A stretch of 64,000 nucleotides of DNA from an uncultured Pelagibacteraceae bacterium (GCA_902604245.1 CACKXQ010000002.1:11018-75017), one strand, 5' to 3'. Positions 1,395-56,852 are shown, counted from the stretch's first letter. Numbers and translations are program-made. Notes: generated from the sequence alone by a model not told the origin.

Positions 1395-1681
1395 TACTCA
1401 ACTACTTTCGGAACAACAAAAAAATCATCATTTTTTTCAGGAGAATTTTTAAGAATCTTTTCTCTTATATTTTTGCTAGTTATTTTATCTTCTCTGAATC
1501 TTAAAGTTGTTTTAGCTAAAGAGGTTAAAGGTTCAACATTCTCAGTTTTTAGCTCATTTAATTTTTCAATAAATTCAAATATAGAGTTCATATCATTTGC
1601 CAATTTTTCAGCTTTTTTCTCTTCAAGTGAAATCCTTGCTAATTTTGATATATGTTTTACAGTTTTAAGATCTATCGTCAT
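1394..1681 (-). CDS. gatC: Asp/Glu-tRNA amidotransferase subunit C
   Basis: [17 protein letters not shown]...FFVVPKVVE; start trimmed from the 135-aa ORF. Confidence 0.93.
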
Positions 1682-1730
1682 ATGGTAAAAATAATGTCGC
1701 AAACTACCACTTAAGTTAAAAATATACAAT

Positions 1731-2186
1731 ATGATCACAATTAATGAATTCAAAAACAAATTATCAAGTGGTTCAAGATTATTGGGTATAGATTTAGGCA
1801 CAAAAAGGATTGGGATTGCAATAAGTGATTATAATCAAAAAATTGCTTCTCCCCTTCAAACCTTAGATAATTCTAAACAAGGTAAATTAATTGATGAACT
1901 AGAAAGTATTATTGCAGAATATGACATCAGAGGAATTATTATAGGCAATCCAATAAATATGGATGGCACTTACGGAAAATCTTCACAATCAGCAAAAGAT
2001 ATAGCAATCAATATTTCGAATAAAATTGATATTCCTGTTTCTTTGTGGGATGAAAGGTTATCTACTGTCGGTGCTTTCAATTTATCAAGTGAATTAGATA
2101 TAAATGTCAGTAAAAGAGAGAAAGATATTGATAAGTTTGCAGCAGCTTTTATTTTACAAGGTGCTTTAGATTTTATTCAAAATTAA
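1731..2186 (+). CDS. yqgF: YqgF/RuvX pre-16S rRNA nuclease
   Basis: LLGIDLGTKRIGIA, WDERLST motifs. Confidence 0.92.
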   Translation: MITINEFKNKLSSGSRLLGIDLGTKRIGIAISDYNQKIASPLQTLDNSKQGKLIDELESIIAEYDIRGIIIGNPINMDGTYGKSSQSAKDIAINISNKIDIPVSLWDERLSTVGAFNLSSELDINVSKREKDIDKFAAAFILQGALDFIQN

Positions 2187-2228
2187 TGGTTGCATAGTTA
2201 ATACTATATAGTTATAGAGTTAGTTTTA

Positions 2229-3170
2229 ATGGCAATTAAATCCAAAAAAGCTATTAAAATATCTCAAAAACATTTGTTAGGTATCCAAGATTTATCTGTT
2301 AGTGATGTTACTGCTATTCTGAATGAAGCCTCTAAATTCATAGAATTAAATAAAAGTAAAAGTAAAAAAATAGATATTTTAAAAGGGAAAACTCAAATAA
2401 ACTTATTTTTTGAACCATCAACAAGGACGCAGAGCTCATTCGAATTAGCAGGAAAAAGATTAGGTGCAGATGTAATGTCAATGAATATTACAAATTCTGC
2501 AATCAAAAAAGGTGAAACGTTAATTGATACAGCAATGACCTTAAATGCAATGCACCCGGATATTATTGTAATAAGACATCAAGACTCAGGTGCTTGTAAC
2601 CTTCTATCTCAAAAAGTTAATTGTGCAGTATTAAATGCAGGTGATGGTAGAAGAGAACATCCTACACAAGCATTATTGGATGCTTTAACAATTATAAATA
2701 GAAGAAAAAAAATAGAAGGTCTTAAAATAGCAATATGCGGAGATATATTACATTCAAGAGTAGCAAGATCAAATATTTATCTTCTAAACATGTTGGGTGC
2801 AGAAGTGAATATCGTGGCCCCTTCAAATTTAATGCCAAATGAAATTGAAAAATTTGGAGTAAATATTTTTTCTGATATGAAAAAAGGAGTTAAAAATTGC
2901 GACATAGTAATGATGTTAAGATTACAGAATGAAAGAATGACAAGCTCGTTTCTATCATCCAATAGAGAATACTATGAGTATTATGGCTTAACACCAGATA
3001 AAATTCAATATGCTAAAGAAGATGCTTTAATAATGCATCCAGGACCGATGAATAGAGGAATTGAAATTGATACAAACTTAGCTGACGATATAAACAAAAG
3101 TGTAATAAAAGAACAGGTTGAATTAGGCGTAGCAGTAAGAATGGCCTGCTTAAAGATTTTTTGTGAATAA
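2229..3170 (+). CDS. pyrB: Aspartate carbamoyltransferase catalytic subunit
   Basis: [20 protein letters not shown] motifs. Confidence 0.97.
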
Positions 3171-4460
3171 ATGAAAAAAAAATACTTTATAAATGCAAAT
3201 ATAATTGACCCTCATAATTCCTTAAATGAAGTTGGAGGAATAATAATAGGAGAAAATGGAAAAATTGAAGCTGTCGGAAAAAAAGTAAATTCCAATAACA
3301 TTCCATCTAGAGAAAAAGTAATAGATTTAAATGGAAAATACATATTTCCAGGCATTGTAGATATGCGAGTTTTTGTTGGTGAACCAGGATATGAATATAA
3401 AGAGAATTTTAGAACACTTAGTGAAGCGGCTTTATCAGGCGGTGTAACTTCAGTTGTTACTATGCCTAATACAAACCCAGTAATTGATAATGTTTCAATA
3501 GTTGATTTTCTTAAAAGAAGAGGAAGAGACAAATCAAAAATTAATATTTATCCAACAGCTGCATTAACAGTAAAAGCAGAGGGAGAAAATATGACTGAAT
3601 TTGGTTTATTACAGAGTAAAGGAATTATTGGTTTCACAGATGGAGTAAAAACAATTCAAAATCCTAGAATTATGAATAGGATTATGAATTCAGCATCAGA
3701 TTTAAAATCCTTAATAATACAACATGCTGAGGATGCAGAATTATCAAAAGATGGAATGATTAATGATGGTATCATAGCAACAAAACTTGGTCTCCAAGGT
3801 ATTCCAATAAGCGCTGAATTGTTAATTATAGAAAGAGACTTAACATTGTTAGAATATAATAGTTGTAGGTATCATATTTCTCAGATTTCATCTGCAAACT
3901 CTGTAGAAATAATCAGAGAAAGAAAAAATAAAGTAAACTTCAGCTGTGGTGTTTCGATAAACAATTTATCATTAAATGAAAATGACATTGGTGATTTCAA
4001 AACTTTTTTAAAATTATCACCTCCTTTAAGAACAGAAACTGATAGAAACGCTTTAGTTCAGGGATTAAATGATGAAACAATTGATGTTATTGTTTCTGAT
4101 CATAAACCAGAAGATGAAGAAAATAAAAGATTAACTTTTGCTCAAGCAGAAACTGGAGCATCTGGAATTGAAACTTTATTGCCCTTAAGCTTAGAATTAT
4201 ATCATAATGGATCGGTTGATTTGGAAACTATAATAAAAGCTTTAACATCAAAACCTGCAGAAATACTTAAAATAAATAAAGGTAACTTATCGACAGGAAA
4301 TGATGCTGATTTTTGTATTGTAGATATAAATAAACCCTGGGTTGTTAGAAAAGAGAAATTAATATCAAAATCAAAGAATACCCCTATTGAAGACAAAAAG
4401 CTTCAAGGCAAAGTTATAAGCACATTTGTTAATGGTGAAGAATTATTTAAATCTGAATAA
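3171..4460 (+). CDS. pyrC: Dihydroorotase-family protein (probably inactive PyrC'-type ATCase partner)
   Basis: Amidohydrolase fold, MPNTNP and SDHKP motifs; DMRVF replaces DxHxH. Confidence 0.85.
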   Translation: MKKKYFINANIIDPHNSLNEVGGIIIGENGKIEAVGKKVNSNNIPSREKVIDLNGKYIFPGIVDMRVFVGEPGYEYKENFRTLSEAALSGGVTSVVTMPNTNPVIDNVSIVDFLKRRGRDKSKINIYPTAALTVKAEGENMTEFGLLQSKGIIGFTDGVKTIQNPRIMNRIMNSASDLKSLIIQHAEDAELSKDGMINDGIIATKLGLQGIPISAELLIIERDLTLLEYNSCRYHISQISSANSVEIIRERKNKVNFSCGVSINNLSLNENDIGDFKTFLKLSPPLRTETDRNALVQGLNDETIDVIVSDHKPEDEENKRLTFAQAETGASGIETLLPLSLELYHNGSVDLETIIKALTSKPAEILKINKGNLSTGNDADFCIVDINKPWVVRKEKLISKSKNTPIEDKKLQGKVISTFVNGEELFKSE

Positions 4461-5035
4461 TGGATTATATTATAACAGCTTTGGTATCTTATCTATTTGG
4501 CTCTATACCTTTTGGATATCTATTCACAAAAATTTTACTTAAAAAGGATATTAGAAATGTAGGATCAGGAAATATTGGTGCCACAAATGTTTTAAGAACT
4601 GGCAATAAGTCATTGGGTTATTTAACACTTGTTTTAGATATAGCAAAAGCTGTTGTGCCTGTTATCTATATAAAGTTCAATTATCCTGACTTAGTTTATT
4701 TATCAGCTCTTTGTGCATTTTTAGGACATTTATTCCCTATTTGGCTAAAATTTAAAGGTGGTAAAGGTGTTGCAACTTTTGTTGGGATTTTAATTTCAAT
4801 AAATATTTATTATGCAATTGTTTTTGGAATTGTTTGGATTTTAACTTTTTTCATATCAAAATATTCATCTCTATCCTCCTTATTTGCTTCTATTTCAATA
4901 CCAATATACTTATTAATCATAAATCAGGATAATATAATTTTTTTCATCATTATGTTTGTTTTGATTTTTTATACACATAGAGGAAATATTAAAAGATTAA
5001 TAAACAAAGAAGAAACAAAGAGTAAAATTTATTAA
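4460..5035 (+). CDS. plsY: Glycerol-3-phosphate acyltransferase
   Basis: GSGNIGATN, FKGGKGVAT. Confidence 0.96.
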   Translation: MDYIITALVSYLFGSIPFGYLFTKILLKKDIRNVGSGNIGATNVLRTGNKSLGYLTLVLDIAKAVVPVIYIKFNYPDLVYLSALCAFLGHLFPIWLKFKGGKGVATFVGILISINIYYAIVFGIVWILTFFISKYSSLSSLFASISIPIYLLIINQDNIIFFIIMFVLIFYTHRGNIKRLINKEETKSKIY

Positions 5036-5072
5036 TTTGACAGTTTAATAGTTATAAGTAGTTTGACTAATT

Positions 5073-7634
5073 ATGAATCTTGTAATTGTTGAAAGTCCTG
5101 CAAAAGCTAAAACTATAAATAAATATCTAGGTTCAAATTACACTGTTTTAGCAAGCTATGGTCATATTAGAGACCTTCCTTCAAAAAATGGTTCTGTAGA
5201 TCCAGAAAATTCTTTTAAAATGATTTGGGAAGTAGATAGTTTCTCAAAAAAATATTTAAAAGAAATTACCGATACAGCCAAATATTCAGAAAAAATTATT
5301 TTAGCTACTGACCCTGATCGAGAAGGTGAAGCAATTGCTTGGCATGTCAAAGAGTTTTTAAACGAAAAAAAACTTCTTAAAGATAAAAAAGTAGAACGTG
5401 TAGTTTTTAATGAAATAACAAAAAGAGCTGTAACAAATGGAATAGATAACCCAAGAAATATCGAAAATGAACTTGTAGATGCCTACATGGCAAGAAGAGC
5501 GCTGGATTATTTAGTAGGATTTAATATATCGCCAATTTTATGGACAAAATTACCGGGATCTAAATCAGCAGGAAGAGTTCAATCTGTTGCTCTTAGATTA
5601 CTAACTGAGAGGGAACACGAAATAGAAGTTTTTAAACCAGAGGAATTTTGGACACTTAACTTAAATTTCTTAACGAAGGAAAATTTAGATATAAATACAT
5701 CTATTACTCAATTAGATGGTATAAAAATTGGGAAATTCTCATTTAAAAATAAAGAAGATATTAATAATGCTTTAGATTTAATTAAAAATAAAAAATATAA
5801 TATTACAGATATAATATCTAAAATTTATACACGAAACCCTTCTGGTCCTTTTACTACTTCTACTTTACAACAGACATCGTCAAGCAAACTGGGTTTTGGG
5901 GCCTCTAGAACAATGCAAATTGCCCAAAGACTTTATCAAGGTATAGATATTGATGGTGAAACCGTTGGATTAATTACTTATATGCGTACAGATGGAACTA
6001 ATATATCAAAAGATGCTGTAGCTTCTTTTAGGAATTTCATTACTCAAAATTATGGTGAAACGTATTTGCCGTCCACACCTTTAAATTATTCAGGAAAAAA
6101 GGCAAAAAATGCACAAGAAGCTCATGAAGCTATCAGACCAACGGAAATTAGCAGAGTGCCTGAAGATATGAAAAAATATTTAAGCACAGATCAATACAAA
6201 CTTTATAATTTGATATGGTCAAGGTCATTATCTTCACAAATGGAGTCAGCAAAATTTGATAGAAAAACTATAACAATTACATCTGAAGATAATAAAAATA
6301 TATGTAAAGCTAATGGATCAACTTTAAAATTTGATGGTTTTTTAAAGGTTTCAAGAATAGATGAAAATAAAGATGATGAAAACACGCTGCCAGATGTTGT
6401 AAAAGGTGAAGTAGAGTTTAAAGACTTTACGGATGAGCAACATTTTACTCAACCACCACCAAGATATTCAGAAGCAAGTCTTGTTAAAAAGTTAGAAGAA
6501 TTAGGAATTGGAAGACCTTCAACATACGCAAGTATAATTTCAGTAATTTCAAATAGAGGTTATGCAGACATAGAAAACAAAAGATTTTTTCCAACTGATA
6601 GGGGGAAATTGCTCTCTGCTTTTCTTGAAAAATTATTCTCAAAATATGTGGATTATGATTTCACTGCAAAATTGGAAGATCAATTAGACGATATAACAGC
6701 TGGTAAAGAAAATTGGATTAATGTTTTGGAGGAATTTTGGAGAGATTTTAATTTAAATGTAGCAGACGTTAAAGAAAAACGTACTAGAGAAGTCTTAGAT
6801 ATGCTTAACGAAAGTTTAGGCTCATTAATCTTTGAAGTTGATAAAGATGGAAAAATCAACAGAAAATGTAAACTATGTGATAGTGGTCAATTAAGTTTAA
6901 AAAACAGTTTTCGAGGTGGTGCTTTTATCGGATGTTCAAATTATCCAGATTGTAAATTTACAAGACCTCTTTCAAAGTCTAAAGCAGCCCAACAATTGAC
7001 TTTAGCAGAACCAAAATTAATTGGTCAAAATGATAGTGGTAAAGATATATATTTAAAAAATGGAAGATTTGGTCCCTATCTTCAATATGAAAAAGAATTA
7101 AATGATGTTGAAGAAACTAAACAGAAAAAGAAAAAATTAAAAAAAGAAGATAATAATATGAAAAACGTATCTATACCTAAAGGAATTGATATCAAAAGTA
7201 TAGATTTAGATAGAGCCAAGTATTTATGCTCACTTCCAATTAGTTTAGGTAAAAACCCTGAAAACGATAAAGATATTACTTTAAATGTTGGTCGTTTTGG
7301 ACCATATTTAAAGTGTGAAAATAAATCGGCGCGTTTAGAGAATGTTGAAGAAATATTTAGCGTAGGTCTTAATAGAGCCGTAACTCTAATAGCTGAGGCA
7401 AAACCTGGAAGAATTTCTTCATCTTTGATTAAAGATCTCGGTGAGCACCCAGAAGATAAAAAACCAGTAAGGATTATGAAAGGTCAATATGGGCCTTATA
7501 TAAAATACAGATCATTAAACGCTACTATTCCTGAAGAAAAAGACCCAATTGAATTAACAATGGAAGAAGCTCTTATTTTAATTGAGAAAAGAAAAGAGTA
7601 CGATAAGAATAAAAAGAAAAAGAAAAGTAAATAA
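5073..7634 (+). CDS. topA: DNA topoisomerase I
   Basis: IVESPAKAK, DPDREGE, SAGRVQS, ITYMRTD. Confidence 0.98.
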   Translation: MNLVIVESPAKAKTINKYLGSNYTVLASYGHIRDLPSKNGSVDPENSFKMIWEVDSFSKKYLKEITDTAKYSEKIILATDPDREGEAIAWHVKEFLNEKKLLKDKKVERVVFNEITKRAVTNGIDNPRNIENELVDAYMARRALDYLVGFNISPILWTKLPGSKSAGRVQSVALRLLTEREHEIEVFKPEEFWTLNLNFLTKENLDINTSITQLDGIKIGKFSFKNKEDINNALDLIKNKKYNITDIISKIYTRNPSGPFTTSTLQQTSSSKLGFGASRTMQIAQRLYQGIDIDGETVGLITYMRTDGTNISKDAVASFRNFITQNYGETYLPSTPLNYSGKKAKNAQEAHEAIRPTEISRVPEDMKKYLSTDQYKLYNLIWSRSLSSQMESAKFDRKTITITSEDNKNICKANGSTLKFDGFLKVSRIDENKDDENTLPDVVKGEVEFKDFTDEQHFTQPPPRYSEASLVKKLEELGIGRPSTYASIISVISNRGYADIENKRFFPTDRGKLLSAFLEKLFSKYVDYDFTAKLEDQLDDITAGKENWINVLEEFWRDFNLNVADVKEKRTREVLDMLNESLGSLIFEVDKDGKINRKCKLCDSGQLSLKNSFRGGAFIGCSNYPDCKFTRPLSKSKAAQQLTLAEPKLIGQNDSGKDIYLKNGRFGPYLQYEKELNDVEETKQKKKKLKKEDNNMKNVSIPKGIDIKSIDLDRAKYLCSLPISLGKNPENDKDITLNVGRFGPYLKCENKSARLENVEEIFSVGLNRAVTLIAEAKPGRISSSLIKDLGEHPEDKKPVRIMKGQYGPYIKYRSLNATIPEEKDPIELTMEEALILIEKRKEYDKNKKKKKSK

Positions 7635-46738: not shown

Positions 46739-46824
46739 TGGTGCCCTCGGCCAGACTCGAACTGGCACTCCATAAATGGCAAGGATTTTAAGTCCTTTGT
46801 GTCTACCAATTTCACCACGAGGGC
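46739..46824 (-). tRNA. tRNA-Leu(TAA), intact; integration target
   Basis: GCCCTCGTGGTGAAATTGGTAGACACAAAGGACTTAAAATCCTT...GTTCGAGTCTGGCCGAGGGCACCA. Confidence 0.96.
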
Positions 46825-46842
46825 ATTAATGAATTTCATGAG

Positions 46843-46871
46843 TATTTATGCTAATATTTATAATTGAACAA
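46843..46871 (-). promoter_or_regulatory. Candidate promoter for tRNA-Leu-nadK operon, supplied by cassette 1
   Basis: TTGTTC-17 nt-TAAATA; block conserved behind the tRNA half copies. Confidence 0.5.
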
Positions 46872-46931
46872 GTTTAATAAGTAAATTTTTTTTATTTTAT
46901 CTCCCTGGTTTCTAGTTTGTTTCTAGTTATC

Positions 46932-47537
46932 CTATAAAATCCCATTAGACTTTAAAATTTCTAATCCTTTATCATCCATTGAAAAATCAAAGGTAATATT
47001 GGGGTCAATATTTTCTTTTATATATTTAATATCTTGTAAATCATCTTTATTGCTTGGGTCAAAAGATGAAGTATTCCATTCCGGGTTATTAAGTCCTTGC
47101 TGAATCCAATCGTCATCCTCATCCATAAAGATATCACTTGGAGATATCATGTTAATTGCTATAGAGATTTTTTTCAAACCACTTAATTTATTTATAAAAT
47201 TTACTATTATTTCTGGATCATAAAGCAAAATATCATCTACTAAATATAATTCTCCTTTAGAATATTTTATTGGTTCACAGTAAAATTTATTATTCTTATT
47301 TATTTTATATTTCTGATTTTTTTTTAAACCCTCAATCTGATTTCTATAAGGAATTGAGTAGTTAATTTTCCATAAAAGCTGAGAAATAGAATTAGACTCT
47401 TCTATAAATTTCTGAATATCGTTATTCCAACAATAATCTTGATCATCCCAATAGGAAACATTATCTCTAACCCATAAATCTCCTCCATCATATTCGAATA
47501 CGTTATTGTTATTATTTATTAGTTTTGGAAAGACCAT
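46932..47537 (-). CDS. Hypothetical acidic protein (cassette 1 cargo)
   Basis: 201-aa ORF; stop lies inside the conserved end motif. Confidence 0.7.
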   Translation of the reverse strand: MVFPKLINNNNNVFEYDGGDLWVRDNVSYWDDQDYCWNNDIQKFIEESNSISQLLWKINYSIPYRNQIEGLKKNQKYKINKNNKFYCEPIKYSKGELYLVDDILLYDPEIIVNFINKLSGLKKISIAINMISPSDIFMDEDDDWIQQGLNNPEWNTSSFDPSNKDDLQDIKYIKENIDPNITFDFSMDDKGLEILKSNGIL

Positions 47538-47548
47538 TAATTAAAAAA

Positions 47549-48052
47549 TTAAAAAAGTTTTCTAAAAAAACTTTTAACATTTTTCTCTACTGGAGACTCA
47601 TTAAAATTTATTGTCATGTCTTTCCACAATTTAACAAGAGCTGACATACATGCTCCACCTTGATTTGTTTTAAATGATTTTTTTCCTTTGTTAATTATAT
47701 CTTGAGACATTTCACCAACTGAATCCTCATATTTTAAACCCTCTTCTGTTGCCTCATAGCTTTGTTTTGCCATCCTATCTTTTTTACTGTTCTCAATATC
47801 ATTATAGCCTTCATCATCCCAAGCTCTACGGTAACAGTAAATCACACTCTTTTTTAAATCTTTTTTACTGATCCCAATTTTTTCTGATGCTCCTTCAAAT
47901 ATACCCCTATAAAAATATATTTTAATATCATAAAGTCTTTTTGCGCTATCTCTATCCATTTGAGATGTAACTTGAGAGTAAGTCATATCACATAACTTAT
48001 GCTCACCTTTTGCTTGTTCCCAGACTAATTCAAAATTATTTTTTTTAGGCAT
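47549..48052 (-). CDS. Hypothetical protein (cassette 1 cargo)
   Basis: Likely start MPKKNNFEL at 48052. Confidence 0.7.
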   Translation of the reverse strand: MPKKNNFELVWEQAKGEHKLCDMTYSQVTSQMDRDSAKRLYDIKIYFYRGIFEGASEKIGISKKDLKKSVIYCYRRAWDDEGYNDIENSKKDRMAKQSYEATEEGLKYEDSVGEMSQDIINKGKKSFKTNQGGACMSALVKLWKDMTINFNESPVEKNVKSFFRKLF

Positions 48053-48056
48053 AATA

Positions 48057-48209
48057 TTATTTAAATTTTCCCCATGTATAATAACCACCAGCTGCACAAA
48101 TTAATATAAATACTAGAGGTCCAATCCCAAATTCACCACTAGTATCATTAAATTTCCAAATTATTATTCCTAATATTGTTCCTGCAATTATAGGGATTAA
48201 ATTTTTCAT
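48057..48209 (-). CDS. Small two-TM protein (50 aa), not in ORF track
   Basis: MKNLIPIIAGTILGIIIWKFNDTSGEFGIGPLVFILICAAGGYYTWGKFK. Confidence 0.6.
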   Translation of the reverse strand: MKNLIPIIAGTILGIIIWKFNDTSGEFGIGPLVFILICAAGGYYTWGKFK

Positions 48210-48216
48210 AAAATAA

Positions 48217-48393
48217 TCAATTTTTTAAAAAATTTGGTATCAAATAGTCTTTTTCAATTTCTTTACGCTCTTCATCTGAATATTTTTTTTTATAACAATC
48301 ATTGCACATATAAACTATCTCTAGAGTGCTTCCAATTTCAGTTAAAAAAGGTTTACTTTCTCCACATTCAGAACATTTTGACAATAATTTCAC
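48217..48393 (-). CDS. Small zinc-ribbon-like protein (58 aa, GTG start), not in ORF track
   Basis: MKLLSKCSECGESKPFLTEIGSTLEIVYMCNDCYKKKY...; two CxxC motifs. Confidence 0.6.
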   Translation of the reverse strand: MKLLSKCSECGESKPFLTEIGSTLEIVYMCNDCYKKKYSDEERKEIEKDYLIPNFLKN

Positions 48394-48569
48394 TCTTATA
48401 AATATTACAACTTTATCTATCTAGTTTCTAGTTTGTTTCTAGTTTGACGAAATTTATTATTCATATTTTCCAATAAAAGTAATTAAAGGTTTTTTAAAAC
48501 TATAGGATTTAATAGGATTTAAGACTGTATAAGACTGTGTGAGACTATAAAATATCTCTACCCTATGTT

Positions 48570-48608
48570 TTTTAAGTCCTTTGTGTCTACCAATTTCACC
48601 ACGAGGGC
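48570..48608 (-). repeat. tRNA-Leu 5'-half copy 2 (att junction)
   Basis: 39 bp identical to 46786-46824, beginning exactly at the anticodon loop. Confidence 0.95.
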
Positions 48609-48734
48609 ATGAGTTATTTTCATGAGTATTTATGCTAATATTTATAGTTGAACAAGATTAATAAGTAAATTTTTTTTAATTTATCTCCCTATGTCCAAGT
48701 TATGTCCAAGTTATCCTACAAAATCCTATAATTT

Positions 48735-50093
48735 TTATCTGCCTTTTTTAAATGGATCTAATATTAGTTTTTTGTGATTATATTTATATTTTTTATTATT
48801 ATAATGGAGTGAATTAACAACCAGTATTCTTGAATTTTCTACATCAATTAAAATCATATTCCCACCATAACCACTCATCCCAAAGATAATCTTATCTTTT
48901 AATCCTGGATAATCCATATGGAATTGACCTCCATAAGATTTAGTACGACCAACTATAGGCTCGTCGTTTTCTATGCTTCCTTTTGGTATTCTTCTTTTAT
49001 AAATTTCTTTTAAATATTTTCCAACACAAGTATCATTCTGATAATCATCCATTATAGCTTTTGCAATTCTAAGATAATCAAATCTTGTTGCCATTATGTT
49101 AGGATGTCCATTTCCAAAATGTTCGTTTAAACTAGTATAGCCATAACGAATACTATTTTTGATCTTTATTTTGTCATTAAAAACTTTGCTATAAAATTTG
49201 TCATAATCTTCACCGACTTTAAATTTCATATAATTTAAAATTAACTGAGTAACAAATCCATTGTAGTTGTATCTTTCCTTAGTTTTTTTTGTATTTTTGT
49301 TGTTAAAGTGTAAGCGCATGGTTGTTGCAATATCTCTATCTTCATATGCATCTAATTTAGTGGTACCATCTTTAAATTCATCAACATATTTTTGATCACC
49401 AGTATTCATATTTAAAAAATTAATTAATTTTTGATCATGATAAAGAGAATCTTTTATTATAGGCCAGTCATTTACTCTAGCATCAACTCCATCAATATAA
49501 CCCTCACATATTGCGTGACCTACTAAATAAGAAGTTACTGACTTACCCATTGACATTGAATAAAATTTTGTTTCATTATTCAAAAACTCTCCCAGTCTTT
49601 CTTTAGGAGAAAGTTCGTCAATTAATACTTCACCATCTTGATAATATAAATAACTAAGGATACCTTTGGTTTTCATTTGCTTTTTTAAAAATTTATCTTC
49701 AATTAAGTTGAATTTAAAATCGTAGGAATTATTTGTTGGTTTAAATTCTTTTAAATGTGAACTTCTATCTCTATATGAATATGCCCATAAATAATAAATC
49801 AGCGAGTCCCTATTTGGGTTTGAATGATAGGCAATATTATAACCTGATAATGCTTTATTTTTTATTTTGATATTTAGATTGTTAGATCCTTGAAATTTAT
49901 CACATTTATTATAATACCAAAGATTACTATATTTTGGCTCTTCTTCGCATACTGGGTTTTTTTTAATATTTAAATATTGATGATATCCATTTTCCAAAAG
50001 CCAAATATTAAACTTATTTAGTTTAGAACTCTCAGCAAATAGATTGCTTGAAGCAAATAAGCTAAAAGATAAAATTATTAATATTTTTTTCAT
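48735..50093 (-). CDS. Secreted serine hydrolase, beta-lactamase/class C-like family
   Basis: Signal peptide; SxxK (SMGKS), YxN (YNYNG), C-terminal MSGYGG. Confidence 0.85.
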   Translation of the reverse strand: MKKILIILSFSLFASSNLFAESSKLNKFNIWLLENGYHQYLNIKKNPVCEEEPKYSNLWYYNKCDKFQGSNNLNIKIKNKALSGYNIAYHSNPNRDSLIYYLWAYSYRDRSSHLKEFKPTNNSYDFKFNLIEDKFLKKQMKTKGILSYLYYQDGEVLIDELSPKERLGEFLNNETKFYSMSMGKSVTSYLVGHAICEGYIDGVDARVNDWPIIKDSLYHDQKLINFLNMNTGDQKYVDEFKDGTTKLDAYEDRDIATTMRLHFNNKNTKKTKERYNYNGFVTQLILNYMKFKVGEDYDKFYSKVFNDKIKIKNSIRYGYTSLNEHFGNGHPNIMATRFDYLRIAKAIMDDYQNDTCVGKYLKEIYKRRIPKGSIENDEPIVGRTKSYGGQFHMDYPGLKDKIIFGMSGYGGNMILIDVENSRILVVNSLHYNNKKYKYNHKKLILDPFKKGR

Positions 50094-50268
50094 TAAATTA
50101 CCTTACATTTTTATCTCTCTGTGTCCAAGTCATGTCCAAGTTTGTAACAATTAATTAAACCTTATTTTCTAATCTTAATTGAAAGCTAATTTAAAGTTAT
50201 GTGATTTTATAGGATGTTTGAGACTTCCAGAGACTGCTAAAGACTCATCAAAGAGTTAATCCCTCGGC

Positions 50269-50307
50269 TTTTAAGTCCTTTGTGTCTACCAATTTCACCA
50301 CGAGGGC
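50269..50307 (-). repeat. tRNA-Leu 5'-half copy 3 (att junction)
   Basis: 39 bp identical to 46786-46824. Confidence 0.95.
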
Positions 50308-50441
50308 ATTAATGAATTTCATGAGTGTTTATGCTAATATTTATAATTGAACAAGATGAATAAGTAAAATTTTTTTATTTTATCTCCCTATGCTCTGGTC
50401 TTGCTCTTGTTATCCTATAAAATCCCTCAAAATGAAACTAT

Positions 50442-50882
50442 CTAAATATTAATCTTATACTCAATTAATACTAGCGTTCTCCATCCATTCTTTTCTTTAA
50501 GAACTTTTTTATGAACTATTTTATATCCAGCAATACTTACATCTTCTAATTTAGAGTCAGCTGTTAAATCATAAGTTTTGGTTATGCCTTTGCTATTTTC
50601 CTTATGAGTTATGATCTCGTTAGATACAATCGAGTGTTGAGTAATATCTGCAATTTTTATTTTTGCTGATAAAATTGCTTTATTTTCAGAAATATTAAGA
50701 TCCTTAGACCAGCCATTTCCACATACTTTAATTACTTTGTTTGTGCTTTTATTTTTATCACAATAAACATTTACAAATTTTTGCAAATCATCAGGTGATG
50801 TAATTGTTTTCTTATTTTTTACATAAGAATTAGTACAATTGGTTAATAATAATCCAATTATAATTATTGATAATATTTTCAT
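50442..50882 (-). CDS. Putative lipoprotein (LPP20-like)
   Basis: Lipobox-like LLTNC; G.G.S.D...S.NKA...AK pattern. Confidence 0.65.
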   Translation of the reverse strand: MKILSIIIIGLLLTNCTNSYVKNKKTITSPDDLQKFVNVYCDKNKSTNKVIKVCGNGWSKDLNISENKAILSAKIKIADITQHSIVSNEIITHKENSKGITKTYDLTADSKLEDVSIAGYKIVHKKVLKEKNGWRTLVLIEYKINI

Positions 50883-50890
50883 TTTTTCTC

Positions 50891-51109
50891 CTATAAGTTT
50901 TCAAGTAATGTAAAAAATACCATGGTGAAAGCTCGATGGTATTTTTCATCAGTGATAAATTGGACAAATATGTTGTCCTTTTCTTCACAAGTATATGTTT
51001 CTTTCTTATTCACTAATTTATTATTTTCGACGTCCGCATATGCATAATACTTGCACTTAGCATTTGCAGGACTGATTAACAAAAAAAGAACTAATATGAC
51101 TCTAATCAT
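50891..51109 (-). CDS. Small secreted hypothetical protein
   Basis: Signal peptide ending ANA. Confidence 0.6.
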   Translation of the reverse strand: MIRVILVLFLLISPANAKCKYYAYADVENNKLVNKKETYTCEEKDNIFVQFITDEKYHRAFTMVFFTLLENL

Positions 51110-51341
51110 AAAGCTCCTTTTCTTTTTGACTTATTTCAAATCTAACTTGATTTAAAATAGCATCCATTAGAACAAAAAATGCCTTATGTACTTCTTGTTC
51201 AAATACTTTTTTTTGGCATACTGAGTTACACTCTGTCAGAACATGTATTAACGTTTGTTGATAATACTCATTAGATTTTGCAAATGAATGAGTTGTGAAA
51301 GTTATCAAAAACAAAAAAAATAGAGTTTTTATAAGCTTCAT
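51102..51341 (-). CDS. Small secreted hypothetical protein
   Basis: Signal peptide ending SFA; AGGA upstream of ATG. Confidence 0.65.
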   Translation of the reverse strand: MKLIKTLFFLFLITFTTHSFAKSNEYYQQTLIHVLTECNSVCQKKVFEQEVHKAFFVLMDAILNQVRFEISQKEKELYD

Positions 51342-51343
51342 TT

Positions 51344-51619
51344 TTATCCTTTCTTTTTATTAAGACCAACTAAGGTCATTATTTCTTTGTCATTTATTAG
51401 TTTGCTATCCAGGATTAGATATACGTGAATATTTTTTTTAAGAGCTACTTTAGCTACTTCTTTATTTTTTAAATATTTTTTATCCGCATGTCCTATCGCA
51501 AATGGTTCATTTTCAATAGCAGCTAAAACGATTTCTTTATTTTTTTTAAAATTGTTTGATAATGATTTGATCGCCCAACCATTTTTTTTAACTAATTTTA
51601 AAGCTTCTGATTTAGTAAT
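51344..51619 (-). CDS. DUF4116-like repeat protein with ATT in place of a canonical start (or start-mutated pseudogene)
   Basis: Open frame (I/M)TKSEALKLVKKNGWAIKSLSNNFKKNKEIVLAAI...; GGAGG 9 nt upstream; aligns residue for residue with the N-terminus of 51844..52632. Confidence 0.6.
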   Translation of the reverse strand: MTKSEALKLVKKNGWAIKSLSNNFKKNKEIVLAAIENEPFAIGHADKKYLKNKEVAKVALKKNIHVYLILDSKLINDKEIMTLVGLNKKKG

Positions 51620-51843
51620 AGTCTTTTTCCTCCATAAATGACTTCACCAATTCTTTAATAATTTTAGAATTGTGTTCGTCTAGTTCTTTGTCTGATAGTT
51701 TTCTTAACTCATTCTCTGAGAGATTTTGTGGAGCTTGTTTCTTTTCTTTATCAGTAATAATGACTTGTTTTATACACCTTTTAAGAAAAATTTTTCAGTG
51801 AAATAAGATTGATTATTTTTCACTTAATTAATACAATAATTTT

Positions 51844-52632
51844 ATGAATAGAGAAGAGTTATTGAAAAATGTCAAAGAGGATCCTTATGCACTTGAAGGT
51901 GCAGAAGATAAATTCAAAAAAGATAAAGAAATAGTTTTAGCAGCTGTAAAAGGTAATGGAAATATTCTTGAATATGCACACGATTCACTAAAGAAAGATA
52001 AAGATGTTGTGCAAGCAGCAGTAACAAATGAAGGTGCTTCACTAAACTTTGCAGATAAATCTTTAAAGAAAGACAAAAAGATTGTTATGGCTGCTGTTAA
52101 TCAAATGGGATCTAATCTCGAATTTGCAGATCCATCTTTAAGAAAAGATAAATCAATTGTTCTTGCTGCAATAAAAAGCTATCCTTCATCTATTGAATTT
52201 GCAGATAAAACTTTTCAAAAGGATAAAAAAATTGTTCTTATGGCTGTATCATCTAGTCCAGATGCACTAGAATTTGCTGACAACTCTTTAAAAAAAGACA
52301 AAGAAATAGTTTCTGCGTCAGTAAAATTCAATGGCTTTTCATTAACGCACGCGGATGCAGCACTAAAAAAAGATAAAGATATTGTGTTAATGGCTGTAAA
52401 ATCAAACGGGAACGCTTTAGATTTTGCTGATAATGCCTTTAAAAAAAATAAAGAAATTGTAATTGCTGCTGTATCAAAGAATGGAGGTGCCTTAGAGTAT
52501 GCGGACGAAATTTTTAAAAAAGATAAAGAAATCGCACTTATTGCTGTGCAACAAGACCCTGATGCTTTAGAGTTCGTAGATAAATCAATTCAAAAAGATA
52601 AAGATATTGTTAAAGCTTCTAAGAAAAAATAG
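51844..52632 (+). CDS. DUF4116-like tandem-repeat protein
   Basis: ~10 repeats of 25 aa, LEFADxxLKKDKEIVxAAV. Confidence 0.85.
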   Translation: MNREELLKNVKEDPYALEGAEDKFKKDKEIVLAAVKGNGNILEYAHDSLKKDKDVVQAAVTNEGASLNFADKSLKKDKKIVMAAVNQMGSNLEFADPSLRKDKSIVLAAIKSYPSSIEFADKTFQKDKKIVLMAVSSSPDALEFADNSLKKDKEIVSASVKFNGFSLTHADAALKKDKDIVLMAVKSNGNALDFADNAFKKNKEIVIAAVSKNGGALEYADEIFKKDKEIALIAVQQDPDALEFVDKSIQKDKDIVKASKKK

Positions 52633-52656
52633 TTCATAAAAATTTATTGCAAGCAG

Positions 52657-53061
52657 ATGAAAGATCCAGAAACTGAATTAGTGAATTTCCTAAATAAGAT
52701 TATAGATGAGAATATAGAAAATTTTAAAGAACAAGGCGATTTTATAGTTCGTCCAGGAATTGCCTATGACAGATTTGATTTAACTGCTGTTGATGGATCA
52801 TATGATATGAGTCTTGCTGGATTAGTACATCATTTTTTATATGAAAGAGGTCATTATGAAAAAATACTACCTAAAAATGAATTTGAGGAATGTGAAAATG
52901 TTGTTAAAAATTATCCTGAGAGTATTTATGGTCCAGAGGATGATGAAGATATACAACTAACTATTGACGAATTGCATCATGTTGCAAGACAAACTGTAGG
53001 AAATAAACTAAAAAACTTAAAGTTTAAAATCTCAGATGAATTTGAAGAATTACTAGATTAA
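52657..53061 (+). CDS. Hypothetical acidic protein
   Basis: 134-aa D/E-rich ORF; TAATG overlap with next gene. Confidence 0.7.
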   Translation: MKDPETELVNFLNKIIDENIENFKEQGDFIVRPGIAYDRFDLTAVDGSYDMSLAGLVHHFLYERGHYEKILPKNEFEECENVVKNYPESIYGPEDDEDIQLTIDELHHVARQTVGNKLKNLKFKISDEFEELLD

Positions 53062-53606
53062 TGAATAGTTTTTTTATAAATCCTAAAGATGCGCAATTTT
53101 CAATAAAAAAATCTAAGGAAAGATTAAAAGAGTATCTTTTCATTTTTAACCTATTAATTGATAAAGAAAAAAAAACCAAACTTTCAAAAGAAGAAAGTGC
53201 AAAACTAATTAGTGTTGTTGAGTCAGCTGCAATTGAGTGCACTATGCAATTTTTTTGGAAATGTGGATATTGGATTTTAAGAGAGCAACAAACTAAAGGT
53301 CCAATGGATTTATATGTTTACAAAATAGTTAATGGTGAAAAAATTGAATACGCTGTTGATGTTAAAGGTATACGTCCTAATGCTAAAAAGAAACCAGCTC
53401 ATAAACCAACCTTGCCCACAGGTTACGAGAAAAAATCACATCATATTAGAGATCAAATTTTAAAGAGAATTGTTGCAATTGTTTATTTGAAAGATGAAAA
53501 AACAAGAAAACAAATTAGCTTTACTGAGGGTTGGCATACTTCTTTTAAAGGTGGCCAAGCAGGACTTACTGGAAAAAGAATTAAAATAAATAAAAATCGA
53601 TTTTAA
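53061..53606 (+). CDS. Putative PD-(D/E)xK restriction-like nuclease
   Basis: E...GPMDL-x15-VDVKG spacing; basic C-terminal half. Confidence 0.5.
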   Translation: MNSFFINPKDAQFSIKKSKERLKEYLFIFNLLIDKEKKTKLSKEESAKLISVVESAAIECTMQFFWKCGYWILREQQTKGPMDLYVYKIVNGEKIEYAVDVKGIRPNAKKKPAHKPTLPTGYEKKSHHIRDQILKRIVAIVYLKDEKTRKQISFTEGWHTSFKGGQAGLTGKRIKINKNRF

Positions 53607-53630
53607 TTTAAATTTTACTTCTAGATTTGA

Positions 53631-54086
53631 TTATTTTATCGACAATTTAAGTTTTGCTATTTTTTCCTCAACTTCATTTATTGCTTTATAAATTTGATCT
53701 TTTTCAGTTTTACTAATTTCTTTTCCCATTGGGCTATCAGGGCTCATTGCATCATGAGTTGTATCCATAAGATTGCCTACCCTACCACCTATTTTAATTA
53801 ATGTGCTCGCAACATTTTCATATACATTTACTTTGTTAAATTCATCCTCAAGTGTAAGAGAGAAATTATCAATAAACGGTGTACCTAGGGATTTTCTTTG
53901 CATTAAAATATCAAGTTTTATTGCATCAATATAATGTAAATTATGATCTTTATCATCTGGGTCACTACATTTTCTAAAGTGAGAAATTGACTTATTGGTA
54001 ATATTTTTTACTTCATCTTCTTCAAGTTTGCTAATTACTTGCGAAAGAACATGCTCAACAGTTAAAGGTTCACGTAGTTTTGTCAT
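53631..54086 (-). CDS. Putative phage-type regulatory protein (CII-like HTH)
   Basis: V..IT.KS.S.FRKCSDPD pattern followed by helical C-terminus. Confidence 0.5.
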   Translation of the reverse strand: MTKLREPLTVEHVLSQVISKLEEDEVKNITNKSISHFRKCSDPDDKDHNLHYIDAIKLDILMQRKSLGTPFIDNFSLTLEDEFNKVNVYENVASTLIKIGGRVGNLMDTTHDAMSPDSPMGKEISKTEKDQIYKAINEVEEKIAKLKLSIK

Positions 54087-54089
54087 TTT

Positions 54090-54890
54090 CTATATTAATT
54101 CTTTTCCCGCTTCTAAGTACATACATTTTTCACAACTCTTATTAATTTCAGGAACTTTATCTAGTTCTAAAGTTTTTTTCATATCACTGATATTATCTTC
54201 TACCCAAGAGGTATCTGTAACGTACGGAACTAAAGTTATTGTAAAATTTAATTTTCCCTCAAAATTGTCAAAACTTTTTTCACCATTACATACATAAAAA
54301 TATGAAGTATCTGAAACTTTAAAACCCATTTTTCTAAGAATATGAACATATATATCCATCTGTATTTTATAACCTTGGTGAAAAATACTTTCTAAATAAG
54401 CTTTAGTTTCAACTTTGGTATTACTTGATTGAGCCTTATAATCTACTACAACTAATTCCTCTTTATCTAAATCATACCAAATATCATCTACTCCACCATG
54501 AATTTCTAAATTGGTATCTTTATCTAAATATGAAATTCCACCAGATAAAGAGTTTCTCCAATTATCTAGTTCTTCATGCTGAAAAGGAATAAAATTAAGA
54601 TTATGTTTCTTAAATATTGGGTGTGGTTTTTTTTGGCTTCTCAGTAAATCAAATTCTTTTTTAAGTAGATCATCAACTGCAACATTTAATGACCAGCCAG
54701 GCATTCCTGGTTCTTTCAATCCCTTAACCCTATCAAGATAAAAACATCTTTTGCAATCTAAAAAACTACTAAATTTTGATCGGCTAATTTTAAAAGGCTC
54801 ATTGGTTCCTCTTTTATAAACACTTCCTTTTCGATTTCTTAAAGGATTTACTTCAACTAAATTACCTTTGCTATCTCTTTTTAAGCCCAT
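54090..54890 (-). CDS. PD-(D/E)xK nuclease, RecB/AddB/Cas4-like superfamily
   Basis: ISRSK..FLDCKRCFY, GGVDD, VVVDYKA, QMDIY, C-terminal CEKC. Confidence 0.85.
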   Translation of the reverse strand: MGLKRDSKGNLVEVNPLRNRKGSVYKRGTNEPFKISRSKFSSFLDCKRCFYLDRVKGLKEPGMPGWSLNVAVDDLLKKEFDLLRSQKKPHPIFKKHNLNFIPFQHEELDNWRNSLSGGISYLDKDTNLEIHGGVDDIWYDLDKEELVVVDYKAQSSNTKVETKAYLESIFHQGYKIQMDIYVHILRKMGFKVSDTSYFYVCNGEKSFDNFEGKLNFTITLVPYVTDTSWVEDNISDMKKTLELDKVPEINKSCEKCMYLEAGKELI

Positions 54891-55058
54891 AAGTTTATCT
54901 TACTATCTCTCCGTGCTCTTGTCTTGCTCTGGTTTGAGAAGTTAATTAAGTATTATTTTCCAATGTTATTATAAAGCTAAATTAAAGTTATGAGATTTTA
55001 TAGGATATTTAGACTACCCTGGACTACTACGGACTGACTTTAACTTATATCCCTCGGC

Positions 55059-55097
55059 TTTTAAGTCCTTTGTGTCTACCAATTTCACCACGTGGGT
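55059..55097 (-). repeat. tRNA-Leu 5'-half copy 4 (terminal, degenerate)
   Basis: 37/39 identical; 5' acceptor strand ACCCACG instead of GCCCTCG. Confidence 0.93.
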
Positions 55098-55136
55098 ATG
55101 AGTTATTTTCATGAGTATTTATGCTAATATTTATGT

Positions 55137-56852
55137 ATGAATAAATTAAAGTTAATATTAGAAAGTATTAACTCTAGAGATTTAGCAAAAGCACTTAAAC
55201 TTTGTAATGAATATGGAAATGAAGAAAGAGATAATAAACATTTAATTAACAATTTTAAAGGTGTTATTTATTTCCTTGAAGGGAAACTAGATCTTGCAGA
55301 GAATAATTTCTTAAATTCACATTTGTTAAATAGTAATTTTGAAGATCCAATAAAAAATTTATATTTAATTTATTTAAAAAAAAATTATCCAATAAAACTT
55401 TTAGAATTTGCAAAAAAACTTTATGAAATAGATAATGAAAATGATCTATATATTTATCAATTAGCTTATGCTCATGAAATAAATAATAATAATAAGTTAG
55501 CTTTAGAGTTTTATATAAAATGTATTCATCTTAATGGTTCTAATAAAATAAAAGCTCTTAATAATGCAGGTAGTATATATCTTAAAAATAATAAACCTAA
55601 AACCTCAATAAGATTTTTTTTAGATGCTTACAATATTAATAAAAATGACAAGATTTTAATTAATAATTTATTCCTTAATTACATTAACTTAAAAGATATC
55701 AAAAATTCTGATGAATTTTTTAAACTAGCCGAAACCAAAGATGAGAAATATATAGAATTTTTATATAATAAAGCAGAATATAAAATTCTTAAAGAAGAGT
55801 ATGACGAAGCAATAGAAATTCTAACCACCAATAAAAAAATACTTAAATTTAAATTAGCTCTTATTGGTCTTTATTTTAATATGGGCAATGAAAAAGATGC
55901 AAAAAATCTTCTTGATAGCTCCAGAGACGAATTTAAGAATAATATAAATTTTTATAATTATATTGGGATCAGATCTCTGTATGAGGGTAACTTTGAAGAT
56001 GGATGGAAATACTATGAATATAGGGGTTCAAAATTAACGAATATTCTAAGTTCAACTAAAGAATGGAATGGTGAAAATTTAGAGAGAAAAAGCATAGTTG
56101 TTTTTAGTGAACAAGGTTTAGGTGATTCAATACAATTTTCTAAATATATAATTTCACTATGTAAAATATCAAAGAATGTAAGTTTTGTTGTAAATAAAAG
56201 TATCTATAATTTATTTAATAATAGTATTGAAAATTTAAATATTAAAACGATAGAAACTTTGGAAGATAAGAATTTTGATTATAAAATTACATTAGGTTCA
56301 TTAATTAAATTTTTTTATAAAGAAAAATATGATTTCAAAGATATCTTGATTAAAAAAGATGAAGTACAGATAGAAAATTGGAGTAAAAAGATTGATAACT
56401 CTAAACCTAAAGTTGGATTAGTTTGGTCGGGTTCTTTTCATGGTCCAAATCAGCCTTTTAGATCAGTACCTTTAAAAAGTTTAGACAAGATTTTATCTTT
56501 AGATATAAACTTTTATGGATTGCAAAATGAAATATGGGAAAGAGATAAACATTATTTTGAAAATTCTAGTATATTAGATTTTGGAAAATATAATCTAGTA
56601 GAAATCTCATCTATTATAGAAAATTTGGATTTAGTTATATCAGCAGACACGTCTATACTTCATCTTTCTTGTTCTCTTAATAAGGATACATGGGGTATTT
56701 TTAATATATATCCAGATTGGAGGTGGGGTGAGTTTGATAAAATAAACCCTTATCCTTCCTTACAAATGATTAAACAAAAGAAGTTCAACCAATGGGATGA
56801 TGTTGCTGATGAAATATTAAAAAAATTACAACTCAAATTTAATTTAGCTTAG
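55137..56852 (+). CDS. TPR-repeat protein with C-terminal GT9-like glycosyltransferase domain
   Basis: TPR helices; GWKYYEYR, EQGLGDSIQF, VGLVWSG, LDLVISADTS..HL, DWRW. Confidence 0.85.
   Translation: MNKLKLILESINSRDLAKALKLCNEYGNEERDNKHLINNFKGVIYFLEGKLDLAENNFLNSHLLNSNFEDPIKNLYLIYLKKNYPIKLLEFAKKLYEIDNENDLYIYQLAYAHEINNNNKLALEFYIKCIHLNGSNKIKALNNAGSIYLKNNKPKTSIRFFLDAYNINKNDKILINNLFLNYINLKDIKNSDEFFKLAETKDEKYIEFLYNKAEYKILKEEYDEAIEILTTNKKILKFKLALIGLYFNMGNEKDAKNLLDSSRDEFKNNINFYNYIGIRSLYEGNFEDGWKYYEYRGSKLTNILSSTKEWNGENLERKSIVVFSEQGLGDSIQFSKYIISLCKISKNVSFVVNKSIYNLFNNSIENLNIKTIETLEDKNFDYKITLGSLIKFFYKEKYDFKDILIKKDEVQIENWSKKIDNSKPKVGLVWSGSFHGPNQPFRSVPLKSLDKILSLDINFYGLQNEIWERDKHYFENSSILDFGKYNLVEISSIIENLDLVISADTSILHLSCSLNKDTWGIFNIYPDWRWGEFDKINPYPSLQMIKQKKFNQWDDVADEILKKLQLKFNLA

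Follow-up and report, generated by a model that had tools for sequence, protein, structure and literature searches.

How can cassettes that carry no integrase come to stand one behind another in a single tRNA gene, and what are the short tandem boxes that each of them repeats at both ends? This question is raised by a 64,000-nucleotide stretch of DNA, which we call the window, from an uncultured Pelagibacteraceae bacterium (GCA_902604245.1 CACKXQ010000002.1:11018-75017; positions are counted from the first letter of the window). Here three cassettes lie in tandem at the gene for tRNA-Leu(TAA), and each has pairs of 11-bp boxes at its two ends. An earlier note on this DNA had proposed that the boxes represent several arm specificities on a common integrase core, so that each cassette could be addressed separately by a different helper integrase. 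Our analysis of the window, of related genomes, and of viral contigs supports this interpretation. We consider it probable, from sequence comparison, that the boxes serve as arm-type integrase sites, with many specificities for a single shared core, and that the cassettes are integrase-less and moved by helpers; binding of the boxes, discrimination between their types, and mobilization in trans are what we infer from the comparisons below. We also refine the proposal, in that the likely helpers are satellite-like elements of 8 to 9 kb rather than the known pelagiphages.

Matched box pairs at both ends of the cassettes

The window has a GC content of about 29% and comes from a genome assembly of 1.07 Mb, which falls among the Pelagibacteraceae. 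An intact tRNA-Leu(TAA) gene lies on the minus strand at 46739-46824 (ARAGORN and alignment), and its 5' half (46786-46824, from the anticodon loop to the 5' end) forms the att core. To the right of the gene are three extra copies of the tRNA 5' half, each with about 50 nt of tRNA-upstream sequence. We set the start of each core at the first T of the anticodon loop (TTTTAAG), at 46786, 48570, 50269, and 55059, and the identity between tRNA and repeat starts exactly at this first base of the loop. The four core copies bound three units of 1.8, 1.7, and 4.8 kb. Copy 1 is the attL of unit 1 (46786-46858, the tRNA 5' half plus a shared tRNA-upstream block), copies 2 (48570-48642) and 3 (50269-50341) form the unit 1/unit 2 and unit 2/unit 3 junctions, and copy 4 (55059-55136) is the attR that connects the array to a resident TPR/GT9 gene (55137-56852). 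By its sequence, this is the layout expected for tandem site-specific integrations that replace the tRNA 5' half. Because each cassette has its own tRNA-half core copy, each appears to have been integrated at the level of the core. We also observed that the last copy departs from the tRNA at its mutated 5' end (55059-55097; ACGTGGGTA versus ACGAGGGCA), and therefore complete emptying of the site would restore a tRNA gene whose acceptor stem is altered.

All six box pairs described in the earlier note were present, each preceded by a short lead-in, and all read on the plus strand. At the left (P') end of unit 1, the lead-in TATCTCCCT and the pair GGTTTCTAGTT TGTTTCTAGTT occupy 46898-46928 (boxes alone, 46907-46928); at its right (P) end, TATCTATCT is followed by AGTTTCTAGTT TGTTTCTAGTT at 48414-48444 (boxes, 48423-48444). 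The left end of unit 2 has the lead-in and ATGTCCAAGTT ATGTCCAAGTT at 48682-48712 (boxes, 48691-48712), and the right end has TATCTCTCT with GTGTCCAAGTC ATGTCCAAGTT at 50112-50142 (boxes, 50121-50142). Unit 3 carries the lead-in and ATGCTCTGGTC TTGCTCTTGTT on the left at 50381-50411 (boxes, 50390-50411) and TATCTCTCC with GTGCTCTTGTC TTGCTCTGGTT on the right at 54904-54934 (boxes, 54913-54934). The lead-in is TATCTCCCT at all three left ends and takes the three forms just given at the right ends. The box types are TTTCTAG for unit 1, GTCCAAG for unit 2, and GCTCTGG/GCTCTTG for unit 3. The two variants of unit 3 stand in swapped order at its two ends, as had been noted; the swap alone carries little weight as an argument against simple duplication. 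Each 21-nt box pattern occurs exactly twice in the window when up to two mismatches are allowed and did not occur in any of 100 dinucleotide-preserving shuffles.

The spacing claimed for these boxes was confirmed: in each of the three units the left pair begins at +121 from the core, and the right pairs begin at -147, -148, and -146 relative to the next core. The further claim that the rest of the arm is shared held for the left arms, which are 88 to 95% identical among units. It held less well for the right arms, which are 67 to 76% identical and fall into two scaffold subfamilies, AATTTATTATTC in unit 1 and CAATTAATTAA in units 2 and 3. A conserved inner motif, ATCCTATAAAATCC, follows the left boxes (46929-46942 on the plus strand, and again at 48713 and 50412), and the P arms contain the inverse of this motif, at 48506, 50203, and 54994; the motif common to the arms, again with its inverse in the P arm, is ATCCTAYAAAATCC. 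Adjacent to the core in each P arm are three RGACT boxes with a 10-bp period (48522-48547 on the plus strand, 50221-50246, and 55011-55036), and these are found in all of the integrase-bearing relatives described below. The geometry is thus that of an att site, with repeated arm-type sites unlike the core, on both arms, at a fixed distance from it. No integrase was found by ORF (open reading frame) calling and Pfam searches among the cargo of the three units.

We counted left/right matching in other genomes, as the earlier note had proposed. The junction sequence matches 341 of 401 family genomes, and many of these matches are to the tRNA alone. We fetched 81 Pelagibacteraceae island regions, picked from genomes with matches and therefore not a random sample, and 47 of them had two to four cores. 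Clear tandem boxes were present at both ends in 39 of the 65 core-to-core intervals. The ends matched in 37 of these 39 cassettes, and all 14 specificity positions were identical in 32; when left and right ends were paired at random, the mean was 7.7 matches and the maximum 17. The frequent mismatch that would have spoken against the proposal did not occur. Box offsets were +120 to +122 on the left and -143 to -148 on the right, and the cassettes ranged from 0.9 to 11 kb with a median of 2 kb. We distinguished 18 box types on cassettes, all of which fit nnNNNNNNGTY repeated twice. The P-arm scaffold went with box type, CTAG types having one scaffold and CTGG, CAAG, and CTTG types the other. 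Where the boxes of two neighboring cassettes face each other at a junction, they differed in 11 of 11 pairs. We considered whether arrays avoid neighbors of the same type and rejected this, since chance predicts about 1 shared type where we saw 0 of 11, which is not significant.

The boxes also change on cargo that is otherwise homologous. Cassettes from two genomes (G301 and G221) have cargo that is 99.8% identical over 2,334 bp, P' arms one mismatch apart, and identical lead-ins, and yet all four boxes differ, being CTACTAG in one and TTTCTAG in the other. There are 13 substitutions in the 44 bp of boxes versus about 4 in 2.5 kb, the breakpoints lie at the inner box edges, and the two cassettes occupy different array positions. 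Similarly, unit 2 of the window and a cassette from G023 share cargo that is 77% identical with flanks that are 74% identical; their box types differ, and each type is matched within its own cassette. Overall, box type differed in two of six pairs with homologous cargo. These comparisons indicate that boxes change as whole units, with both ends of a cassette changing together. That they do so on near-identical cargo argues that the matching of ends is under selection. The concerted switch between G301 and G221 itself lies outside our current explanation.

Integrase-bearing elements with the same attachment site

The earlier note had suggested a search for elements with this arm scaffold that still encode an integrase. 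Such elements exist, and they include carriers of the unit 1 and unit 3 box types. A pattern scan of IMG/VR for the lead-in with CTAG-type boxes found a contig of 9,013 bp, L096, with a 100-bp terminal overlap; because of this overlap, we take it to be a circle of about 8.9 kb. It encodes a 549-amino-acid (aa) tyrosine integrase with a PF00589 catalytic domain, an 835-aa DUF5906 primase, a RusA-like resolvase, and several small ORFs, and no capsid genes were found in it. Its attP has the same core, the three RGACT boxes, the TATCTCTCT lead-in, and a box pair at +121. The P-arm boxes lie 120 to 170 bp on the other side of the core, where they overlap codons 5 to 25 of the integrase. Exact copies of the box word in L096 are confined to the two attP arms. 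A 202-aa ORF of this element (L096:7654-8262) has a weak match to the DNA-binding domain of Tn916 integrase (E-value, 0.0026), and its product could be excisionase-like or a second arm-binding protein.

Clustering at 90% identity divides the family of this integrase into at least 140 clusters, most of them from contigs no longer than 10 kb; the members of the family are about 545 aa long and are carried on primase-bearing elements of 8 to 9 kb. Beyond L096, 17 loci from IMG/VR, metagenomes, and single-cell genomes had a readable attP, and every one of them shares the core and the design. In every integrase-bearing locus with both arms present, the boxes match. L096, L117, L118, and L121 to L128 share core, lead-in, spacing, and box types with the cassettes. 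In each of the Pelagibacteraceae single-cell genomes AG-909-L14 and AG-903-K07, one such element occupies tRNA-Leu(TAA), and the one in AG-903-K07 has the same neighboring tRNA genes as the window. In all, 12 box types could be linked to an integrase. Among them, TTTCTAG (L118 and L122) is the unit 1 type and GCTCTTG (L124) a unit 3 type, and GTACCAG, GTACTAG, GTACTGG, and GCTCTAG are integrase-linked types that are also found on cassettes.

We modeled residues 1 to 165 of the integrase with AlphaFold2 from an alignment of 57 sequences (mean predicted local distance difference test score, 75). The three best Protein Data Bank matches of the model were the arm-type binding domains of P4-like integrases, 3jtz, 3rmp_C, and 3ju0, with a Foldseek probability of 1.0 each and E-values of 0.01 to 0.04. 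VIA-align gave Z scores of 9.7, 9.2, and 9.1 over 75 to 88 residues at 2.1 to 2.6 Å, and the next match scored 4.5. The N-terminal residues 29 to 128 are thus predicted by this model to fold as a P4-like arm-type binding domain. The commonest Pfam match, PF13356 (Arm-DNA-bind_3), was seen in 8 of the 57 N-terminal domains, below threshold and with a best E-value of 0.0026; L096 had no match. The lambda-type arm-site reading of the earlier note is therefore borne out as to a predicted N-terminal arm-binding fold, which is P4-like and not that of lambda Int itself.

The note had further suggested a test of whether variants of the N-terminal domain covary with box type, and contrasts between mosaic integrases agree with such covariation. 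The N-terminal 150 to 160 residues diverge and recombine separately from the rest of the protein. Compared with L096, L104 has an N-terminal domain that is 99% identical, a catalytic domain that is 84% identical, and an identical box. L121 presents the converse: its catalytic domain is 100% identical to that of L096 and its N-terminal domain only 53%, the latter being 85% identical to that of L117. Its P arm is related to those of L117 and L126, and its box, GTACCAG, resembles their GTACTGG and is unlike the TTACTAG of L096. Three pairs (L105/L096, L113/L099, and L123/L124) are 88 to 99% identical outside the N-terminal domain and 73 to 79% inside it, and their boxes are one base apart. The boxes of L118 and L096 are also one base apart, with 71% identity in the N-terminal domain and 49% in the middle domain. 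By these contrasts, the N-terminal domain is a swapped, fast-diverging module that tracks box type. We also considered the P' boxes of L121 as an island within a scaffold of another lineage; this scaffold is 95 to 96% identical to both candidate parents and was uninformative.

Weighing the explanations

Under the explanation we prefer, three integrase-less integrative cassettes would have been inserted in tandem at the anticodon loop of a SAR11 tRNA-Leu(TAA), every one of them supplying a new tRNA 5' half. The 11-bp tandem boxes would be the arm-type sites of each cassette's former attP, with the P' pair at +121 and the P pair about 147 bp before the next core, and tyrosine integrases of about 545 aa, encoded outside the cassettes, would recognize them through an N-terminal arm-binding domain. 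The 8- to 9-kb satellite-like elements, with their integrase, DUF5906 primase, and RusA-like resolvase and the same core, lead-in, and spacing, would carry these integrases. Arm specificities would have diversified while the core stayed constant; cassettes show at least 18 box types, and 12 types are integrase-linked. If a single integrase type has to occupy both arms of an element for an intasome to form, then the ends of a cassette must match, and the ends of neighbors of different types should not pair. Excision or insertion of a cassette would accordingly require that the cell also contain an element that encodes the cognate integrase.

Several observations weigh against this explanation. 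Mobilization, if it occurs, needs a transient helper and was not observed. The arm scaffolds of the cassettes differ from those of the integrase-bearing elements, and by this comparison the cassettes are a lineage of their own and not fresh deletion products. Two of the 39 cassettes have unmatched ends: one has TTTCTAG on the left and GCTCTTG on the right (L039, reverse complement 1560-3317), and the other has GTACCAG on the left and a GCTCCAG-like box on the right (L172, reverse complement 1627-3806). These two may be fusions formed when an internal junction was lost. As for the integrases, L106 and L128 share the GTACTAG box despite N-terminal domains that are only 53% identical. The Mantel test of N-terminal domain against box distance is weak (rho, -0.27; P of about 0.02), and the catalytic domain does as well; the link drawn above rests on the individual mosaic contrasts and not on this global test. 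Finally, the region coding for the N-terminal domain adjoins attP and overlaps the P-arm boxes, and therefore linkage, not coadaptation, could give part of the covariation.

The search for a resident integrase also counts on this side. No tyrosine recombinase (PF00589) was found in the window's own genome, which is 76% complete, and no integrase was found at tRNA-Leu(TAA) among the 140 genus genomes searched. In 133 of these 140, PF00589 was represented among the matches listed, mostly by a recombinase of about 325 aa (e.g., G167:C1:601838-602380); in those complete genomes that we compared, about 100 kb separate it from the tRNA-Leu island. Twenty extra integrases that we fetched lay beside tRNA-Arg-TCT, Met-CAT, Leu-GAG, Asn, Leu-TAG, Leu-CAA, or Thr or beside no tRNA, and none was at tRNA-Leu(TAA). 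For the unit 2 type, GTCCAAG, an IMG/VR scan found no integrase and gave only unrelated contigs of 49 to 57% GC. Four such contigs (L129 to L132) have tandem TGTCCAAGTY repeats with an 11-bp period in up to five copies; other elements that share the word of unit 2 may use these repeats as arm sites or iterons. A scan of IMG/VR for the GTGCTGG box pair hit only a coding region of one unrelated phage family, the generic lead-in and box pattern gave two further chance matches only, and the cassette-type P' scaffold gave one 5-kb contig, which lacks an integrase. In public seawater metagenome runs, 28 to 42% of the window's words are present; the joints in the short Logan contigs were ambiguous because boxes and arms are repeated. 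We tried the phages HTVC105P and uvMED S35-C6 as helpers and rejected them: in a BLAST search of junction DNA against 50,697 phage records, only the 41- to 47-nt core matched, and the arms differ.

The boxes might also be arm-type sites on dead relics of once-autonomous elements that lost their integrase, whose ends match by common origin and which nothing addresses today. Besides the lack of an integrase in the window's genome and at tRNA-Leu(TAA) in the 140 genus genomes, and the two hybrid cassettes, this alternative draws on the literature, which reports no canonical mobile elements in SAR11 islands (PMC11796062). It does not sit well with the pattern of conservation, however. The 14 specificity positions are identical at the two ends in most cassettes while the P arms drift to 67 to 83% identity, and the spacing is kept within 1 to 2 bp. 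Cargo that is 99.8% identical carries two internally matched box types at different array positions in two genomes, and the arm scaffolds of the cassettes form a conserved lineage across many box types. We therefore regard relics as unlikely.

The boxes might instead be iterons or operators for another protein of the element, such as the DUF5906 primase/replication initiator or a regulator, and serve the excised circle's replication or expression instead of recombination. Tandem direct repeats of 11 bp are a typical feature of iterons, and a primase is among the genes of the integrase-bearing elements. Moreover, the right boxes lie 20 to 30 bp upstream of the first cassette gene on the minus strand, and they overlap the integrase start in the autonomous elements. 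But the cassettes have no replication gene, the exact box words of L096 occur nowhere outside the two attP arms, and boxes at fixed distances on both sides of the core are arranged as arm sites are. Furthermore, it is the integrase N-terminal domain, with its predicted arm-binding fold, that varies with box type. We hold this alternative to be very improbable, whereas a regulatory side effect of the boxes, e.g., autoregulation of the integrase, is compatible with arm-type sites.

Least probable of all, by a little, is that the box pairs are crossover sites or duplicated targets of a second, cassette-level recombination into an existing scaffold, with ends matched by duplication: each cargo is indeed bounded by a direct repeat of about 31 bp, made up of the lead-in and boxes, and box-switch breakpoints on identical cargo lie right at the inner box edges, but every cassette owns a tRNA-half core copy, recombination at the P-arm boxes of integrase-bearing elements, which lie inside the integrase gene, would remove its first codons, the two copies often differ in linker bases and are swapped in order in unit 3, and no empty scaffold was present among the 81 island regions.

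Arm-type sites on helper-moved cassettes therefore remain our preferred explanation. We put forward more tentatively, as a possibility we would not yet count on, that SAR11 maintains a cassette economy without a resident integrase. A family of satellite-like elements would share one tRNA-Leu core, and their integrases would have diverged into at least 18 mutually orthogonal arm specificities. The integrase-less cassettes would have matching addresses on the two arms, each cassette being excised, moved, or captured by its cognate helper alone. The addresses could be rewritten in concert, as with the 99.8% identical cargo that has CTACTAG in one genome and TTTCTAG in the other, which would reassign cargo between helpers.

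Cargo, related systems, and meaning for SAR11

The cargo of unit 1 (46943-48413, minus strand) consists of four minus-strand ORFs with no Pfam match, and that of unit 2 (48727-50111, minus strand) is a single 452-aa ORF, also with no Pfam match. Unit 3 (50426-54903) has about 10 ORFs, including a protein with ten DUF4116 repeats and a 75-nt period in its DNA and a PD-(D/E)XK nuclease, in the regions 51844-52632 and 54090-54890. The tRNA-upstream copy at each junction (46826-46896, 48609-48680, and 50308-50380) contains a promoter-like block, TTGTTC-17 nt-TAAATA, on the minus strand. The block of each junction faces the cassette to its left. Since most genes of the cassettes are minus-strand genes, duplicated tRNA promoters may drive their transcription.

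Other arrangements occur at the same core and at other tRNA genes. A second arm design at the tRNA-Leu(TAA) core has tandem CTACACTAGAA / CTACACTAGAT boxes that flank a 1.45-kb unit with a single 397-aa ORF and no Pfam match (L022 of G233, reverse complement 45-1500, and also L049, L042, and the first unit of L056). A unit of 2,177 bp lies between two cores without recognizable boxes in L063 (reverse complement 3985-6162), L064, L065, and L066; it is 96 to 97% identical among three of these four genomes and 88% identical to L064, and the single comparable flank pair is 77% identical. At tRNA-Leu(GAG), integrase-bearing elements of about 5.4 kb (L079:9250-14780 and L083:9090-14655, in G191 and G381) have tandem repeats of about 11 bp, CGAGCACACT / TGAGCACACT, on both arms, two beside the integrase and three or four at the far end.

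The arrangement described here resembles several known systems. Like the P4-like integrases of the HPI and HAI7 islands (3jtz, 3ju0, and 3rmp) and lambda Int, it combines a core in a tRNA gene (P4-like), arm repeats on both sides at fixed distance, and an N-terminal arm-binding domain, here a predicted one. The SAR11 integrase is about 100 aa longer, however, many arm specificities share one invariant core and a largely common scaffold, the element restores the tRNA 5' half, and most copies lack an integrase. Cis-mobilizable elements (CIMEs), known from site-specific accretion with ICESt1 and ICESt3 in Streptococcus thermophilus, are integrase-less tandem elements bounded by attL and attR; the integrase of an autonomous relative is presumed to move them. 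The SAR11 cassettes likewise have attL and attR bounds, no recombinase of their own, and related autonomous elements with the same att sites. They differ from CIMEs in being much smaller, in having candidate helpers that are satellite-like and not conjugative, and in their diversified arm sites, so that only a helper of their own type would act. Integrons, too, are arrays of small integrase-less cassettes at one chromosomal site, but the SAR11 arrays have no attC hairpins and no resident IntI or attI, and their cassettes end in direct repeats plus a tRNA-half core, with two arms each.

Marine mobile elements offer closer settings. Prochlorococcus tycheposons target tRNA genes, carry integrase and replication modules, and integrate in tandem so that older elements are pushed into the island, with partial tRNAs and degenerate remnants (bioRxiv 10.1101/2020.12.28.424599). 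Both hosts are streamlined marine bacteria; the host differs, and probably the integrase family does as well. The tycheposon paper makes no mention of arm sites or attP, whereas the integrase-less units of SAR11 keep complete matched arms. Virion-encapsidated integrative mobile elements (VEIMEs) are marine phage satellites found in Pelagibacter (PMC9618062). The 8- to 9-kb elements with integrase and primase fit the description of VEIMEs and occur in viral-contig collections; the VEIME paper mentions neither "attP" nor "arm" and describes no integrase-less cassettes. Integration at tRNA-Leu(TAA) has been shown experimentally for the pelagiphage HTVC105P (MH598804; bioRxiv 10.1101/410191). Next to its integrase gene, this phage carries an identical core, 41 nt that correspond to the tRNA 5' half, and it replaces the 5' half. 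Unlike the elements described here, it has an unrelated small integrase (297 aa from the annotated coordinates), GAAGTAGCGGA-type arm repeats, and no TATCT lead-in or box pairs.

Arm-type sites, P4-like arm-binding domains, tandem att-bounded elements without integrase, Pelagibacter phage satellites, and pelagiphage integration at tRNA-Leu(TAA) are thus already known, and partial tRNA repeats in SAR11 islands have been reported (PMC11796062). We found no published description of this integrase family and its attP design, of a large set of arm-site types on one core, of integrase-less cassettes with matched arms, or of concerted box switching.

No bacterial lineage in the ocean is more abundant than SAR11, and since canonical mobile elements are almost absent from its islands according to published work, the question arises of how genes are gained and lost there. 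The locus described here offers a concrete and testable route for such gain and loss. If the specificities are orthogonal, they would account for the editing of tandem arrays one cassette at a time. They would also constitute a naturally occurring set of orthogonal pairs of integrase and att site that differ only in a small N-terminal domain and a word of 7 to 8 bp, which would be useful for studies of how arm recognition evolves and for genetic tools.

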